From NCBI GenBank assembly GCA_963827685.1, contig CAWHBU010000002.1:256001-320000 (forward strand): a DNA stretch of 64,000 nt, in the 5' to 3' direction. Position numbers and translations under genes: made by a program. Below are positions 8,565-38,668 of the stretch, one piece after another. The stretch's first letter is position 1. Each line of letters opens with the position of its first letter. Source of the stretch: an uncultured delta proteobacterium. GTDB taxonomy: Bacteria > Desulfobacterota > BSN033 > UBA1163. The notes beneath the pieces are model-generated. The model saw only the letters and a program-made list of their open reading frames with translations, did no database searches and was not told the origin of the DNA.

Positions 8565-8566
8565 AA

Positions 8567-8752
8567 TTGTGATTTGTGAGTGGTGAATGGTGAATCGTGA
8601 AAATACAATAAATCAAAAACCTGAATTATAAAACTATTGAACAAAACGGCGAATCACCAGCATCAATCAACAAATTCGTGAGTCGTGAATAGTGAATCGG
8701 GATAATACCTGGATGACGAATCCCCAATTACCAACACGAATCACCAATCACC
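8567..8752. repeat. Alternating 7-bp-period arrays (TNGTGAA / ATCACCA-like)
   Basis: TTGTGAT TTGTGAG TGGTGAA TGGTGAA TCGTGAA; TCGTGAG TCGTGAA TAGTGAA; complementary CACGAAT/CACCAAT units. Confidence 0.7.
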
Positions 8753-13265: not shown

Positions 13266-13661
13266 TTGGCCAGAGCACTCAAAAGGCGCGAGATTGAGAA
13301 CGCCATCTCTCACGAAAGGCTCTATTATCGGATTGGAGAGGTGAGCCGTATTACGGGTCTTAAGGCTCATGTGCTTCGTTATTGGGAGTCGGAATTTAAG
13401 GTCATCAGACCTCACAAAGGAGGATCTTTGCAGCGGCTCTACCGGAGGAAAGACCTGGACCTCATCCTCAAAATCAAAAAACTCCTTTATGAGGAGGGGT
13501 TTACCATCGCTGGAGCAAAGAGAAAGATCCGGGATCTGGAGAGATTGGAAAACAAACAGACGAAATTGAAACTGGTAGAGAAGGGATCCGATGGAAAAGC
13601 TGATGAGTTGCTGAACGCCCTTCAGGAAGAACTGAAGGGGATCAGAAAGATGCTGGAATAG
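13266..13661 (+). CDS. MerR-family transcriptional regulator
   Basis: YYRIGEVS...HVLRYWESEF...LLYEEGFTIAGA; conserved ihfA-merR-tRNA-Pro synteny. Confidence 0.9.
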   Translation: MARALKRREIENAISHERLYYRIGEVSRITGLKAHVLRYWESEFKVIRPHKGGSLQRLYRRKDLDLILKIKKLLYEEGFTIAGAKRKIRDLERLENKQTKLKLVEKGSDGKADELLNALQEELKGIRKMLE

Positions 13662-13723
13662 TCGAACTTCATTTAGAAATCACTTAAAGATTTATTTTTT
13701 ATACAGCATTAAAAAGAGAGAGT

Positions 13724-13879
13724 ATGTCTAAAGTCATCATTGCCTTGCTCATTCTTGTATTTCTCGCCATCTTTCTCCTTCTATTTTGGATCATCGTCCT
13801 GGCCCTTGCCCTCCTGATCTTTCCAAAAAAGGGGAAAAAGAGAAGAACCCTTCTTCCAGAAACAGGGGGAGGTGAGTAG
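13724..13879 (+). CDS. Small hydrophobic membrane protein (51 aa, not in ORF track)
   Basis: MSKVIIALLILVFLAIFLLLFWIIVLALALLIFPKKGKKRRTLLPETGGGE; AG-rich RBS, long hydrophobic helix and basic tail. Confidence 0.5.
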   Translation: MSKVIIALLILVFLAIFLLLFWIIVLALALLIFPKKGKKRRTLLPETGGGE

Positions 13880-13949
13880 AGGAGGGCTGACGCATCTGTG
13901 ATTAAGACATTAAGGCTATAGACCTCAGACTTTAGGTTGAAGAGGGGAA

Positions 13950-14045
13950 ATGGCGAGAGATTATAAAAAGATAAAGGCATGCCAGCTGGCAGAGAAACTG
14001 GCACTCTTGGTATATACGAAAAAATTTCAAAAAAGTGAAATATAG
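13950..14045 (+). pseudogene. Truncated four-helix-bundle (23S-IVP/Avd-like) gene remnant
   Basis: GAGGGG RBS followed by MARDYKKIKACQLAEKLALLVYTKKFQKSEI*, resembling the N-termini of the ORFs at 30932 and 38210; flanked by inverted 7-bp arrays. Confidence 0.7.
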
Positions 14046-14215
14046 AGTTAGAGGAGTTTGATGTCTAACGTCTGAAGTCCGGTGTCTGAATTGCAGGTCG
14101 ATTAAGGTGAAGCTGGACTTTTGAAAGAAAATTAACTATATTAAAAGTTAATTTGGGAATTTTGGGATTCCTAAATCCTCAATCCCTTAATTCTTGAATT
14201 GAAAATTCTGATTAT

Positions 14216-14292
<77 letters not shown>

Positions 14293-14583
14293 TCTTTCCC
14301 CAATCTTTTCAATATCTTGTGATTTAGCCTCCACTATTAACTGATTATTAACCTTTTTTTTACCTCTCATGATGTCTACCAATCTACCTGTTCGATAGTC
14401 CGCATATCTTTGAGTCGTTGCAATACTTGAATGACCATAGACTTCCTTTAGTTCATCCAAATTATAACCATCATCCAACCGCTGCATCCCAAAAGAATGT
14501 TTTAGCCCATTATACAGATTGATTATTTTCGTTTTGTACTTTTTGTTAGCCAGTGAGCTTGCTCTATGCCAAATCTTTCTCAT
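14293..14583 (-). pseudogene. Tyrosine recombinase C-terminal remnant
   Basis: YNGLKHSFG...[17 protein letters not shown] resembles the HxxR / GH...Y catalytic boxes; N-terminal part missing. Confidence 0.8.
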
Positions 14584-14728
14584 CTTTTAGTCTCATCTTT
14601 TTTTCTGTACTTTGCAACAAAGGGCGACTTCTTATCAGGAAGACTTTTGCGATTTCAAGAGATTTCTAGATTTGAAGGATCTATTTTAGCAAGGTTCCGC
14701 GTCTTCATTGTCGGAGAAAGGAGGGAAC

Positions 14729-15028
14729 ATGTTACACAGAAAAACAATCTGTTTGCTCGTGGTCGTCTTTTTATTCCCTATTATTTCTTGCACCCGAATT
14801 TCCGAAGGGCCGAGCGAAAAGACCGTAGTATTAGGGCACGAAAAACTGCCCGCCTTAGACTCCATCCCTTTGGAATGGGGAAAATTGGTTTCAGTGACCA
14901 CGCCCCCAATTTATGAGGGTATTTCCCAACTTTGGTTCCAGGACGAGAAGGGCAAAGTTCGAATGGTAACGTTCGACATTAAGAATAGGTGTTTATTTCC
15001 TAATGCCGTAGTAATTTCTCGTAAGTAA
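14729..15028 (+). CDS. Hypothetical lipoprotein
   Basis: GGAGG RBS, hydrophobic signal ending IISC (lipobox-like). Confidence 0.6.
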   Translation: MLHRKTICLLVVVFLFPIISCTRISEGPSEKTVVLGHEKLPALDSIPLEWGKLVSVTTPPIYEGISQLWFQDEKGKVRMVTFDIKNRCLFPNAVVISRK

Positions 15029-15038
15029 GGAGGGAAGA

Positions 15039-15269
15039 ATGATGCGACAATTGACGAGCATTATGTGTCGGCTTCTATTGATGGTAGCATTTTTGTTGGC
15101 TGGCCTTTCTGGCTGGGAGAAGCTAGCCCAGCTGTTTGGATATACGATTCTTAGAGATTCTTACCAGCCATGGCGACTGTTGGAATTTTCAGCCATTGCC
15201 TTGCTTTTTGTTATAGCTCTCCAGTTGAGGGAGATCAAGATGTCATTGCGTGGACGAGGATCCGATTAG
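15039..15269 (+). CDS. Small two-TM membrane protein
   Basis: AAGGAGG RBS, two hydrophobic segments, follows the lipoprotein gene. Confidence 0.6.
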   Translation: MMRQLTSIMCRLLLMVAFLLAGLSGWEKLAQLFGYTILRDSYQPWRLLEFSAIALLFVIALQLREIKMSLRGRGSD

Positions 15270-15487
15270 AAATCAGTTCCTGCAGGATTTGCAAACGAGC
15301 CGCGATCACGCTCTGCTTTCGCGTGTTCCTAATTTGAGGGGCTAACCTCGTTTTCCAGTGTGACCTCTAAAATAGGACGGGGGCTTGAAACTCTGTCTTT
15401 GGTTGCTCCCATCCCGCTGCGAAGGCTTCTTGTCAGACTCTCCCCTGGAGGGCTGAAGTTTATTTTGCCCTCAGGATAATTGAAGCA

Positions 15488-15829
15488 GAGATCGACATCA
15501 AACCTGAAAATTGCCCAAACAGCATCAACCCCAAGAGCATGGGTAAACTCCCCGTTGCCATCCTGTCTACGGAAGGCTTCGATGCTCCTAATCAGCTTAA
15601 CCCCAACTCCCTCACCTTCGGGTCCACAGGGGATGAGCCAAGGTTAGCCTTCTGCAACCCCAAGGGAGAAGATATTAATGGAGATGGCTTGACAGATCTG
15701 GTCTGCCATTTCAACACTCAATCCACTGAGTTTGTATGTGATGATACAGAGGGTATTTTAAAAGCCCAAACAAAGGACGGCACGTCTATCGAGGGGAGTG
15801 ATTCGGTTAGGATCAATCCATGTAAGTAG
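15488..15829 (+). pseudogene. C-terminal fragment of a secreted protein (DIKP...SINPKS.GKLPVAIL domain with DINGDG Ca-binding loop)
   Basis: In-frame EIDIKPENCPNSINPKS upstream of the ATG at 15539 has no start codon; DINGDGLTDLVCHF motif. Confidence 0.55.
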
Positions 15830-15853
15830 TCTGAATCACCTTCTTGAAGCTTG

Positions 15854-15885
15854 AAGGCAGGGTCAGAAATGGCCTTGCCTTTTTT
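15854..15885 (+). terminator. Intrinsic terminator
   Basis: AAGGCAGGGTCA-GAAA-TGGCCTTGCCTT followed by a T-run. Confidence 0.75.
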
Positions 15886-16519
15886 ACTTATTTCAATCGC
15901 AAATTTTCAATTCGCCCTGTCGTGTGGAGCTGCGGACTTGTAGATGAAGTGTTCAATCGAGACTTATTCTGACGCCGTGTGTCAAATCAAGTACTGGCCA
16001 GGAAATGGTGAGTGAATCATCGGTCTGGTTTTATGAACTCACTATGAACTGAAATTCTCTTCTCTTGTAACTTTTTGAATATGTTACATTTATCTCTGAA
16101 GGGGCAAAGGTTCAAATCCTCTCGCCCCGACCATTTCCCTTTTATTTCGCTACTTTCATTTTTCTTTCTCCTATCGTTATTCAAGATCAAAGATTTTCAT
16201 GGATCGGTACAGGAAACCACACCTGTGTAACGTAATACCCGTCTGCGCGAAGCCCCGCCTCCAGAACCTCGCGCGGAAGGGCGGGTGTCCCGACAAAGGC
16301 AGGTAATTCGGCGTGTACGCGCGTACCCGTCCATCGGGTACATCCGGAAGTCAATAAAAAATGGAAATATTTTTCACTTTTTTAAATAAGCAATTCGGGA
16401 CTTATGTGAGAATTATTTCCCATTCTAAAGAGGGTGGTTTTCTACAAACGTATGTTTTGAAGCCAGCAATTTGTTGATAAGTTTAATAGGTTCTGATATG
16501 CTTCTAAAAAGAGATTTGC

Positions 16520-30883: not shown

Positions 30884-30931
30884 CTTAATAAAGCGTAAGG
30901 GGGAAGGCGTAAAGCGCAAGGGGTAAGGAGT

Positions 30932-31323
30932 TTGGAGAAACCGCGTAAGAAGTTGGATGTTTGGCAAGCAGCAATGAAAGCAGCAACAATGATATATAAA
31001 TTAACAGATAGATTTCAGGAAGAGGAAAAGTTCGGACTTGTCTCACAAATGAGGCGTGCATCAATCAGCATTCCTTGTAACATCGCTGAAGGCGCGGCAA
31101 GACAAGGGAAAAGAGAGTTCAAGAATTTTCTTAGCATGGCCCAGGGGTCTCTAAGCGAATTAGATACTCAACTAGAACTCGCTATCCTGCTCGGGTATAT
31201 AAGCACTGGAGATCTCCGAGAAATAGGGATCAATTATTAAGGATTGACAAAATGCTTTCAGGGTTAATTCGTAGTCTTACAAATAGGACTATAAACAACA
31301 AGGAGAAACGCTCTCGCGCCTAA
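30932..31323 (+). pseudogene. Four-helix-bundle (23S-IVP/TIGR02436-like) protein, frameshifted near 31228
   Basis: LDVWQ..EEKFGLVSQMRRASISIPCNIAEGAAR..F..FLSMAQGSLSELDTQL; the typical C-terminal helix DQLLRIDKMLSGLIRSL continues in another frame to TAA 31323. Confidence 0.85.
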
Positions 31324-31455
31324 CGCCTTGCGACCGGGCGCTACGCAGGGTCTTGGTACCTGATTTAGCACCTTTCGCCTTGCGCTTTACGGTTTTTTTA
31401 GAAATGTTTAAATGACGCTCTCGCGCCTTGCGACTAACGACTGACGGTCTTTGTT

Positions 31456-33457: not shown

Positions 33458-34844
33458 ATGCTTAGCATGAACGGGTATAGGTCCTCAGCGGGTTTGTTAT
33501 TCGGATTGATCGATGGCTTCCTTATTCTGACGGGGGTATTCGCGGGAGCTCATCTGAAATTCTGGGGAGATGGTAGCTCTATTTTTCTTTTTGATCATCT
33601 CGTCCTTAAATTAATGCTTGTCGTTTTTACGATTCAAATCGCATACTACTATTTTGACCTTTATGATTTTAAAATTTTTCGCAAGGCGACAAAAGTGGGC
33701 ATCCTGCTCTTAGAATCCCTTGGAGCCTCAGCCATTTTCTTAGCAGTCATCTACTACTTCCTTCCCTTTCTTATGATAGGCAGGGGAATACTTGCGATCA
33801 GCTTATTTCTGATTTTGCTGTCTACCTTTTTATGGCGCTTCCTTTATGCATGGATGTCCAAGGCATTGCTAAATAAAGAAAGAATTTTAATTATCGGTAC
33901 AGGCGAGTTGGCAAGAAAGATTAAGAGTGAAATCCTTGATAACGGTTACGATGGTTTTGAAATTGTGGGGTTTATCGATGAGAACAGAGACAATATTGGA
34001 AACAGGGTCTAACCCAGTGATTGTAGGTGACTACACACAGATTTGCTCCATTGCCAGAGCAGGTGGCGTTGACAGAATCATTGTGGCATTGGACGAGAGA
34101 CGGGGAAAATTTCCGCTCGAACAGTTGCTCTCTTGTCGGTTGAACGGTATCCGTGTGGAAGATGGGATGGCTTTCACCGAACAACTTGCTGGAAAGCTCT
34201 CGGTGGAGAATCTCCATCCCAGTGTTCTTATTTTTTCAGATGGGTTTAAGAGATCGGCGATTTTTAAACAAATGAAAAGAGTTTTTGATATCTTGGCATC
34301 AGCAGTCGGTCTCACCTTATTTTTCCCCTTCGGCTTGATAATCGCCTTAGCCATCAGGCTCGATTCGAAGGGCCCGATTCTTTACCGGCAAGAAAGGGTA
34401 GGGAAGGATGGAAGGATATTCCGCCTTTTGAAATTCCGGTCGATGTGTATGGATGCGGAAGAAAGCGGTCCGGTGTGGGCAAGGGTGAATGACCCGCGAA
34501 TTACCCGGGTAGGTCGAATGATCAGAAAGTTGAGGTTAGACGAAATCCCGCAGATGATCAATGTCTTAAAAGGGGAAATGAGTTTTGTAGGCCCGCGGCC
34601 CGAAAGGCCCTTCTTTACGGAGCAATTAAAGATCGAAATTCCTTATTTTTCTCAAAGGCATGTCACTAAACCGGGGATCACGGGTTGGGCGCAGATTTGT
34701 TACCGATACGGATCATCAAAAGAGGATGCCTTAGAGAAGCTGAAATACGATCTCTATTATATTAAGCACATGTCCTTGTTTTTTGACCTGGTGATCATTT
34801 TTGAGACGGCCAAAATCGTACTTTTAGGGAAGGGATCAAGATGA
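33458..34844 (+). pseudogene. Priming sugar transferase (PEP-CTERM TIGR03013-like), frameshifted at ~34010
   Basis: N-terminal TM + ILIIGTG half stops at 34012; the C-terminal half (KFRSM, DPRITRVG, LDEIPQ, GEMSFVGPRPER, PGITGWAQ) is in another frame. Confidence 0.85.
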
Positions 34845-35259: not shown

Positions 35260-36237
35260 ATGAGAGCTTTTAACCAAAAAATATTAGAAATCGATTGTGA
35301 TACCGAATCAAAAAAAATCTGCGAATTCATGAAGAGGACAGTTTTGAAGGATTTCCGGAAGAAGGGTGTGGTAGTGGGGTTAAGTGGTGGAATTGATTCT
35401 GCTCTCACGGCGGCCTTGTCCGTGAAGACTTTTGGAAAGGAGAGGGTGCTTGGAGTGATTCTTCCAGAGAAGGAATCGAGTTCAGAGAGTGAAATTCTGG
35501 CGCGGCAACTGGCAAATTGGCTCGGAATAAAAACAGAAACGGTTCCTATTACTCCAATCCTTCAAAGCTTGGGCGTTTATCAGAGGAGAGAAGCAATCGT
35601 AAGAAAATATTTCCCTGAGTTTGTAGAGGGCTGGAAATACAAGCTTGCGATTTCGAAGGATACCCTTGAAAAAGAAGGGCTCAATTTCTTCTATCTTGTT
35701 GCCATAGATGAGGATGGAGCAGCTCATAAGGGGCGTCTTTCTCTGAACGATTATCTGGAAATGGTTGCGGCTACCGAAATGAAACAACGGACTCGAATAA
35801 TTTAACTCTATTTTTATGCAGAAAAGAGTAATTGCATTGTTGCAGGTACTACGAATTGATCGGAGCTTGTCCGGGGTTTCTTCGTTAAGTATGGCGATGG
35901 AGGGATGGATATGGAGCCAATTGTCCATCTTTATAAGATGCAGGTGTTTCAGCTTTCCGAATTTCTTGGTGTTTCCCAGGAAATTATTAGAAGGATACCG
36001 AGCCCCGACACCAAGACCGCCGGAGTCAGTGATGAGGAGTTCTACTTCAGGATTCCATTCGATCTCTTGGATTTATTGCTCTATGCACATGAGAAACAAG
36101 TTCCATTGGAGGACGTTTCAAATGTTTTAAATATGCCCTCCAAGAAGATTTTAAGGTTCTATAAAGATTTTGATGGTAAGAGCAAAGCAACCTGGCATTT
36201 ACGAACCATGCCACCTAACCTGATTGATCATAAATGA
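35260..36237 (+). pseudogene. NH3-dependent NAD synthetase-like enzyme with two in-frame stops
   Basis: GLSGGIDS, KQRTR, GTTN, GFFVKYGDGG and PSPDT all in one frame; TAA at 35803-35805 and TGA at 35857-35859. Confidence 0.85.
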
Positions 36238-38209: not shown

Positions 38210-38668
38210 ATGAAGATAGCTCGTTTTGAAGATATAGAGGCATGGCAAGAAGCAAGAAAACTTGTGACAATGGTTTACGATGCCATAAAGAAGAACCCCC
38301 AGTTTCGGAGGGATTTCCGCTTGGTAGGTCAGGTGCAGGACGCTGCAGTATCCTGCATGTCAAATATTGCGGAAGGTTTTGCGAGAAGGAGTAACAGGGA
38401 GTTTATCCAATTCCTTTTTATATCCAAGAGTTCGGCAGCAGAAGTTCAAAGTCAATTCTACGTAGCCTTAGATCAGGGGTACGTTATCAAAGATGATTTT
38501 GGGAGGATTTATGACCAGGCTGAGATAGTATCTAAACTGGATTCGGGTTTTATAAAGTATCTGAATTCGACGTTTGAGAATCGTCCTAAACGCAATCAAC
38601 TCAACAAACCCAATAAACCCAACGAACCCAATAAACCCAACGAACCCAATGAACCCAATAACTCATAG
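38210..38668 (+). CDS. Four-helix-bundle (23S-IVP/TIGR02436-like) protein with repeat-encoded tail
   Basis: FEDIEAWQEAR..DFRLVGQVQDAAVSCMSNIAEGFAR..EFIQFLFISKSSAAEVQSQFYVALDQGY; C-terminal (N-K/E-P)n from the 9-bp array. Confidence 0.9.
   Translation: MKIARFEDIEAWQEARKLVTMVYDAIKKNPQFRRDFRLVGQVQDAAVSCMSNIAEGFARRSNREFIQFLFISKSSAAEVQSQFYVALDQGYVIKDDFGRIYDQAEIVSKLDSGFIKYLNSTFENRPKRNQLNKPNKPNEPNKPNEPNEPNNS

Follow-up and report, generated by a model that had tools for sequence, protein, structure and literature searches.

What is a 31-aa ORF doing between two facing arrays of 7-bp repeats, in the spacer between merR and a tRNA-Pro gene? The question arises in an uncultured delta proteobacterium, within a stretch of 64,000 nt (GCA_963827685.1, contig CAWHBU010000002.1, positions 256,001 to 320,000), which we call the window. 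An earlier note, made from the letters alone, had read the locus as a truncated four-helix-bundle gene with its flanking arrays (arms) retained, and as a decay intermediate linking intact cassettes to orphan arrays. We put the probability at about 85% that the locus is what remains, as a pseudogene, of an insertion cassette resembling an intervening sequence (IVS): the cassette would have inserted, then undergone a single large internal deletion and decayed neutrally.

Organization of the remnant

All parts of the remnant are given on the plus strand. The left arm (13894..13937) consists of a terminal stem segment and five degenerate NNNAGAC-type units at 13902-13937. The earlier note had counted three units; of the five, the one at 13909-13916 is 8 nt long and the one at 13931-13937 is degenerate. 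A purine-rich leader (13938..13949) follows, which is likely the ribosome-binding site of the former gene. The read-through of P0033, a full-length relative, ends with residues compatible with this leader. The 5' relic of the gene (13950..14045) is the 31-aa ORF, equivalent to residues 1-33 of its relatives without K23-A24. It carries W11C and P29Q and ends at a premature stop (14043-14045), which was apparently created by a 2-nt duplication, as judged by comparison with relatives. The 3' relic (14045..14068) holds the junction codons, the last residues and the original stop (14066-14068). It lies in another frame than the 5' relic and overlaps right-array units 1-2. The right arm (14056..14098) consists of five GTCTNNN-type units (14056-14090) and a terminal stem segment.

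The right array had been said to follow the ORF directly; it begins 10 nt past the premature stop. That 10-nt gap, together with one and a half units from the start of the array, is what is left of the gene's 3' end. The 31-aa ORF, the leader, the upstream units at 13902-13937 and the downstream units at 14056-14090 were otherwise correctly placed. The claimed distance of 17 kb to the other copies also held (the next copy, at 30932, is 17.0 kb away), and comparison of the units confirmed that the repeat unit differs from those of the other window copies.

Homology of the 31-aa ORF

The 31-aa peptide gave no match in Pfam and NCBIfam scans, in a PDB sequence search, or in a tblastn search against plasmids. 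The HMM check against PF05635/TIGR02436 proposed in the earlier note was thus negative with the peptide itself, and a subfamily profile was needed. BLASTP aligned the peptide with the window copy at 30932 (12/32 identities) and gave no match with the 38210 copy. A phmmer search of 1.84 billion representatives returned six proteins, all of them short, and one of them (P0004) matched PF05635 with an E of 4e-4. P0004 was then used as the query, and 112 of 115 candidates were kept as longer proteins, all with PF05635. They are mostly 121 aa long; some few are frameshifted themselves.

Against the subfamily HMM built from the 112 proteins, the window ORF reached 40.6 bits (E 3.9e-11, 2971 stop-to-stop segments), and the next unrelated window segment 5.2 bits. 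The window ORF was 79% identical to the best subfamily members over 33 columns, and BLASTP linked it to 112/112 longer proteins at E<=1e-3. A broad family HMM also matched it (E 9e-4); decoys gave no match. The full-length relative P0009 cleared the cut-offs of PF05635 and TIGR02436 (117.5 and 113.7 bits, respectively) and scored 36.3 with the Avd model NF033474, under the cut-off of 80. P0009 had no match in a search against phages, and an ESM Atlas search with it gave PF05635 clusters only.

These comparisons indicated that the ORF is the N-terminal residues 1-33 of a ~121-aa protein of a four-helix-bundle (PF05635/TIGR02436) subfamily. The four-helix-bundle assignment of the earlier note is supported by the subfamily HMM, and the peptide does resemble the family N-terminus, aligning to residues 1-33. 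By score the remnant is no longer a family member; by alignment it is homologous to members. It lacks the full set of four helices and the central motif of ~110-125-aa members, with residues 34-110 deleted. The conserved family motif, as quoted in a passage of PMC3936711, falls in the part lost here.

An internal deletion shared with relatives

Positions 14048-14068, read in the other frame, match the last residues of the subfamily (C-terminal columns of the 112 longer relatives), and the old stop sits within the second right-array unit. As both gene ends survive, the comparison indicates that the remnant arose by internal deletion, not by simple truncation. The phrase "truncated gene" was therefore right in that most of the gene was deleted and the arms were kept, and needs refining in that the deletion was internal, with both ends preserved. 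An alternative reading of the downstream units, as a frameshifted continuation after residue 33 whose codons they would resemble, was rejected on the C-terminal column match, which identifies them as gene end plus arm.

Seven remnants were combined into a profile, and from the 849 candidates that it retrieved, 61 short proteins were kept. Loss of K23-A24 together with replacement of P29 was found in 27 of the 61 (Q in 25, R in 2) and in 0 of the 112 longer proteins. Residue 33 is joined to residue 111 in 18 of these 27, and two more appear frameshifted. This junction recurs in samples that are independent of one another and come from several sources; the 27 clusters were compared as proteins. 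P0123, P0127 and P0130 are in-frame 43-aa fusions of gene start and end, and P0133 has the 33-111 junction with K23-A24 retained.

Comparison with relatives attributes W11C, a probable 2-nt duplication and the loss of four further codons to the window copy itself. At 13 near-invariant sites, the remnants carry 2.65 changes and the longer proteins 0.14, a comparison that is partly circular (the sites were defined on the intact set, itself chosen by likeness to P0004) and that counts inherited changes many times. Remnant copies with frameshifts, early stops and insertions are also present. Together, the alignments indicate that the shared lesion was inherited and that the remnants decay as pseudogenes do. 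Further independent deletions were seen by eye in P0004, P0139, P0153, P0158, P0161, P0162 and P0168, most of which visibly keep the 3' end or the arm. Other short matches, which may be contig ends or read errors, were not counted.

Arms of the cassette

The arms of the full-length subfamily were read at the protein level, from read-throughs. NNNAGAC-type heptamers precede the start in the N-terminal read-throughs of full-length P0033, P0070, P0075 and P0098, and the N-terminal read-throughs of the deleted forms P0124 and P0137 spell the same arm. GTCTNNN-type heptamers follow the gene end in read-throughs of P0007, P0032, P0052, P0062, P0065 and P0109, and the C-terminal read-throughs of the deleted forms P0002, P0164 and P0167 spell this right-arm type. 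In P0060, P0083, P0092 and P0112, the upstream-type unit was found downstream instead. These read-throughs support the view that the arm type belongs with the subfamily and that the arms are part of the cassette. They likewise bear out the earlier statement that the arms were retained, as the arm type at the locus is the one that accompanies the subfamily in relatives.

Pairing between the left and right arms reaches past the arrays, to about 13894 and 14098. The terminal complementary sequences pair into a stem round the ORF, a stem that is degenerate, and marginal in the flank-duplex and DNA-fold tests. The right array is the sole 4-of-5 period-7 GTC run within the 64-kb window. Period-7 clusters of any trinucleotide number eight in the window and 0-2 per Markov simulation (n=10); the upstream arm is absent from the eight. 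The arm duplex of -32.5 kcal/mol, with arm limits set by eye, was matched by 0 of 931 same-geometry, GC-matched pairs, and the strict Watson-Crick inverted-repeat score was equalled or exceeded in 41 of 3189 windows. The RNA fold of the remnant pairs both arms (z -2.3; minus strand, z -2.9), the DNA fold is unremarkable (z -0.8), and the flank-duplex z is -2.14, with 1 of 35 control genes lower. Stem mismatches between the arms are compatible with G-U pairing, and the left arm is visibly eroded compared with P0124/P0137. The two arrays are not in the TRF listing of tandem repeats. An Rfam scan of 13600-16300 found nothing over the remnant, the tRNA alone being above gathering, and a terminator scan made no plus-strand call at the remnant. 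We consider the arms real yet degenerate and worn, a point settled by homology to the relatives, not by arm statistics.

The locus in relatives

A merR scan of GTDB gave 80 loci among the matches listed (413 relatives), and 29 of these loci come from the clade to which the window and Deltaproteobacteria bacterium RBG_16_49_23 belong. The interval from merR to tRNA-Pro was complete in 26 of the 29, and the gene, the remnant or these arms were found in 0 of these 26 among the matches listed. Neither a full-length gene nor a remnant was found at the orthologous site in L001-L080, again among the matches listed. The full-length gene that the earlier note expected between merR and tRNA-Pro in relatives was thus not found there. 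The window genome forms its own branch, with pheT at <=82.5% identity to the relatives listed and its exact placement at low support. From the absence of the gene in relatives and this separate branch, the cassette most likely arrived on the genome's own lineage.

A YbjQ-like gene (PF01906) is present in 11 complete intervals among the matches listed, and close relatives keep its tail only. In the window, 14097..14105 (plus strand) are, by similarity, likely the last codons of this lost gene, and the cassette likely occupies its place. In L003 (10598-11068), the YbjQ-like protein has an N-terminal CxxC...CxxC extension; the gene was repeatedly lost from the merR-tRNA-Pro interval in the clade. 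Upstream, a 51-aa hydrophobic ORF follows merR (13724..13879, plus strand), with tblastn matches in L001, L003, L005 and L007, and is also visible in L004, L006 and L008. Downstream of the cassette lies a sigma-70-like promoter of tRNA-Pro (14114..14142, plus strand; 2 sites in the scan, 1.2 expected), which is near-invariant in aligned relatives. A precise empty allele for the window site was found in none of the aligned relatives.

There was no rRNA match in 13600-16300; the remnant sits between the small ORF and tRNA-Pro. The one long exact repeat in this region is a 27-nt tRNA att repeat (14267-14293 and 16108-16134). It bounds a decayed integrative element at tRNA-Pro (14267-16134) with an integrase relic at 14293-14583 on the minus strand; L003 has a full integrase at the tRNA-Pro position.

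Plasmid cassettes as insertions

Among plasmids, 13 of 37 records with a four-helix-bundle relative were examined at the DNA level. Six of the 13 genes have strongly complementary heptamer arms, with z below -4.6. Strong paired arms were absent round the other seven (70/60-nt flanks), most of which have an array on at least one side, and in the same flanks round the window's other two copies. Three plasmid sites were compared with homologous plasmids (11 matches). An empty allele was found at each, and the insert spans arm to arm; such cassettes are therefore insertions ending in their arms. The plasmid junctions are ambiguous as to target-site duplication. At one of the sites, a gene-free array in a relative shares the left junction and the arm type, and its interior has no profile match; two other relatives have different arm types at that junction. 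Orphan arrays therefore sit at sites of similar kinds. L098 and L099 were considered as intermediate plasmid sites and dropped, having unrelated genes inside.

Other plasmid observations concern position. In L092 (689-1233), the four-helix-bundle gene is split by a second inverted-array insertion with the unit of its own arms. In L082, L085, L088 and L090, the cassettes lie within operons and point either way: those between ribonucleotide reductase subunits and between secretion genes are antisense, and those in the cas6/cas4 and cmr2/cmr3 gaps are sense.

Orphan arrays and the other window copies

Orphan inverted arrays of 6-9 bp occur in the clade with many unit types, swapped among relatives, at the thrS-infC, infC-rpmI, rpmI-rplT and rplT-pheS junctions and in the tRNA-Pro leader. 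No gene fragment was detected in them at the 80 loci among the matches listed. The link from cassettes to orphan arrays is supported in part. Such decay is recurrent; against the link stand these fragment-free arrays and some plasmid orphan-array interiors that are unrelated to the gene. Orphan arrays need not all arise by gene decay.

An orphan 8-bp inverted array is located between the promoter and tRNA-Pro (14150-14200), and relatives have other unit types at the same spot (tRNA-Pro leaders of L001-L026). The rpmI-rplT spacer contains a ~200-bp double inverted array (8565-8752) that is common to four genomes (L002, L005, L007 and L008). L007 has an internally deleted 115-bp version of it, indicating that orphan arrays shrink by the same route.

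Farther along the window, the 30932 copy (30889-31446), which had been taken as an intact cassette, is frameshifted. The frameshift is near 31237, and the last helix continues in another frame; its 7-bp arms are at 30889-30937 and about 31310-31446. The copy at 38210-38668 reads through its 9-bp right arm to give a 152-aa protein with a repetitive tail, and many 9-bp arrays of this type lie between polysaccharide-cluster genes. Sugar transferase and NAD-synthase-like genes of that cluster (33458-34844 and 35260-36237) appear split over two or three ORFs, possibly by decay or sequencing error.

Proposed origin and alternatives

The cassette would have consisted of a four-helix-bundle (Avd-related) gene within two complementary heptamer arrays able to pair round it. 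It would have landed downstream of the small membrane ORF and ahead of the tRNA-Pro promoter, in place of the lost YbjQ-like gene; presence and absence were observed, and we infer the timing. One deletion then fused codon 33 to codon 111, with the loss of about 77 of the 121 codons; the ends and arms were left, and the junction was observed at the protein level in relatives. Repeated Gly-Leu codons nearby may have served as microhomology. The loss of K23-A24 and P29Q, observed as shared among remnants, were fixed in the ancestor of this remnant lineage. Neutral decay here would have added W11C, the stop-making 2-nt duplication and the loss of four more codons, changes that were observed directly or deduced by comparison with relatives. 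At present the remnant most likely does nothing beyond forming a weak hairpin in transcripts that cross it.

Could the deleted ~200-bp form be a mobile, non-autonomous (MITE-like) derivative, spread using intact cassettes or a partner enzyme in trans? At least 27 clusters carry one lesion, yet the form is absent at this locus in the 29 clade relatives among the matches listed, and the window, P0002 and P0164 do not read alike beyond the right arm. The form retains its start, leader and both arms; terminal inverted repeats with the coding middle deleted, a MITE-like trait, are present; and ORF-less arrays of several unit types lie at plasmid junctions that are empty in relatives. However, the form is a single copy in 64 kb and was found in none of the 80 listed loci. 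The lineage has no close GTDB representative (pheT <=82.5%), and unsampled sister species could hold one inherited copy. The interval turns over fast, which can account for the differing flanks, and the P0002 tail, judged by eye, could be a decayed YbjQ tail. Flank peptides mapped to loci gave chance-level or REP-like matches only. We regard mobility of the deleted form, the main alternative, as rather unlikely. Less likely still is that the remnant persists for the structure of its RNA, with the paired arms acting as an RNase III site, a pause or a terminator to keep the ihfA-merR transcript apart from tRNA-Pro. The RNA fold pairs the arms (z -2.3), G-U pairs can accommodate the stem differences, clade members repeatedly have orphan inverted arrays at corresponding junctions, and IVS stems are RNase III substrates in the part of PMC4990558 seen here. 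On the other hand, 26 relatives among the matches listed do without the remnant, its left arm has decayed relative to P0124/P0137, and neither an Rfam match nor a plus-strand terminator call falls on it.

A working mini-protein of 31-43 aa, such as a helix-1 fragment interfering with the pentamers of intact relatives, would fit the in-frame 43-aa forms with start and stop (P0123, P0127 and P0130) and the many copies that keep start and leader. The copies argue against it, having acquired private changes at near-invariant sites as well as frameshifts, early stops and insertions. Also against it are the loss of helices 2-4 and the family motif and the preference of protein-database searching for open frames, and we find a function of this kind very improbable. 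If the ORF and the repeats had come together by chance, or through misassembly, this could explain why the peptide has no Pfam, NCBIfam or PDB match and why the arms are marginal in the flank-duplex and DNA-fold tests. Such a reading is at odds with 79% identity to full-length proteins over 33 columns (next unrelated segment, 5.2 bits) and with the recurrence of the junction in independent samples of several origins; the subfamily HMM match and the lesion shared by 27 clusters refute it.

We return to the decayed insertion cassette. The intact form would most likely spread by way of an RNA stem-loop and borrow its enzyme in trans, as Avd kinship and the retained G-U pairs of the stem suggest. 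Neither reverse transcriptase families nor a transposase were found among the 55 window ORFs scanned. A broader idea, which we offer tentatively and consider doubtful, is that four-helix-bundle genes with inverted heptamer arms form an RNA-based mobile cassette family, with the 23S rRNA IVS as a special case and Avd as a recruited relative. Internal deletion would yield short derivatives running from arm to arm, the remnant among them, which would be mobile in trans and would seed the orphan intergenic heptamer hairpins of many bacteria.

As a pseudogene the remnant is ordinary; what makes it valuable is the moment that it captures, with both gene ends still inside complementary heptamer arrays, and related proteins display a full series of deletions of this kind. 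With the filled and empty plasmid sites added, it connects two unexplained features, the solitary "S23/IVP" genes found at operon junctions and the heptamer hairpins of intergenic DNA, and the origin of the hairpins becomes testable. Internal deletion with the arms kept is one route to stray short-repeat hairpins between bacterial genes.

Comparison with known systems

MITEs are internally deleted derivatives of insertion sequences. Like them, the remnant keeps its ends and has lost its coding middle. As differences, no transposase was found among the 55 window ORFs scanned, neither a clear target duplication nor a second copy was seen, and the arms are tandem arrays with G-U pairs.

In Xanthomonas, Nostoc and Beggiatoaceae, intergenic 7-bp arrays are often convergent pairs, patchy in distribution and of unexplained origin (passages of PMC4692102 and PMC4679880, which make no mention of helix-bundle or S23 genes). 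The arrays of the remnant differ in still enclosing both ends of a four-helix-bundle gene. Stand-alone IVP (four-helix-bundle) genes are scattered in cas loci (PMC3936711, in part), and IVP genes also in CPR rRNA insertions (10.1101/2024.02.27.582315, in part). The stand-alone PF05635/TIGR02436 proteins are of the same family as the remnant, and their genes stand alone at operon junctions, like those of the plasmid loci; unlike them, the remnant is a relic. The passages on these genes in PMC3936711 do not mention flanking inverted arrays or cassette mobility. In full-text searches that covered few subscription papers, no paper linked four-helix-bundle genes to inverted heptamer arms outside rRNA, and the link from cassette to orphan array appears to be undescribed so far.

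Avd forms a pentameric four-helix bundle whose binding partners include an RNA stem-loop and a reverse transcriptase, according to the parts seen of 10.1101/2023.10.23.563531 and PMC10053308. The gene behind the remnant encodes a bundle homologous to Avd of diversity-generating retroelements (NF033474, PF22296). Unlike in such a retroelement, no reverse transcriptase was found among the 55 window ORFs scanned, and P0009 scores 36.3 against the Avd cut-off of 80. In structure the remnant resembles the ORF-bearing 23S rRNA IVSs of Coxiella burnetii and Leptospira, as described in passages of PMC4990558. There, a four-helix-bundle ORF lies inside terminal complementary sequences, heptamers lie just upstream of the start, and the ORF undergoes reductive evolution. 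In the C. burnetii 23S IVS, the terminal inverted repeats are cut by RNase III, heptamer repeats precede the S23p ORF, and one strain has a 176-bp internal ORF deletion (same passages). This case is a published precedent, inside rRNA, for decay with the arms kept. The remnant differs in lying in a spacer between a protein gene and a tRNA gene, in having heptamer arrays as both arms, and in the overlap of its right arm with the last codons of the gene. In its workings it resembles an IVS-type cassette that has decayed; lying outside rRNA, it is not a 23S IVS, nor is it a part of a diversity-generating retroelement.
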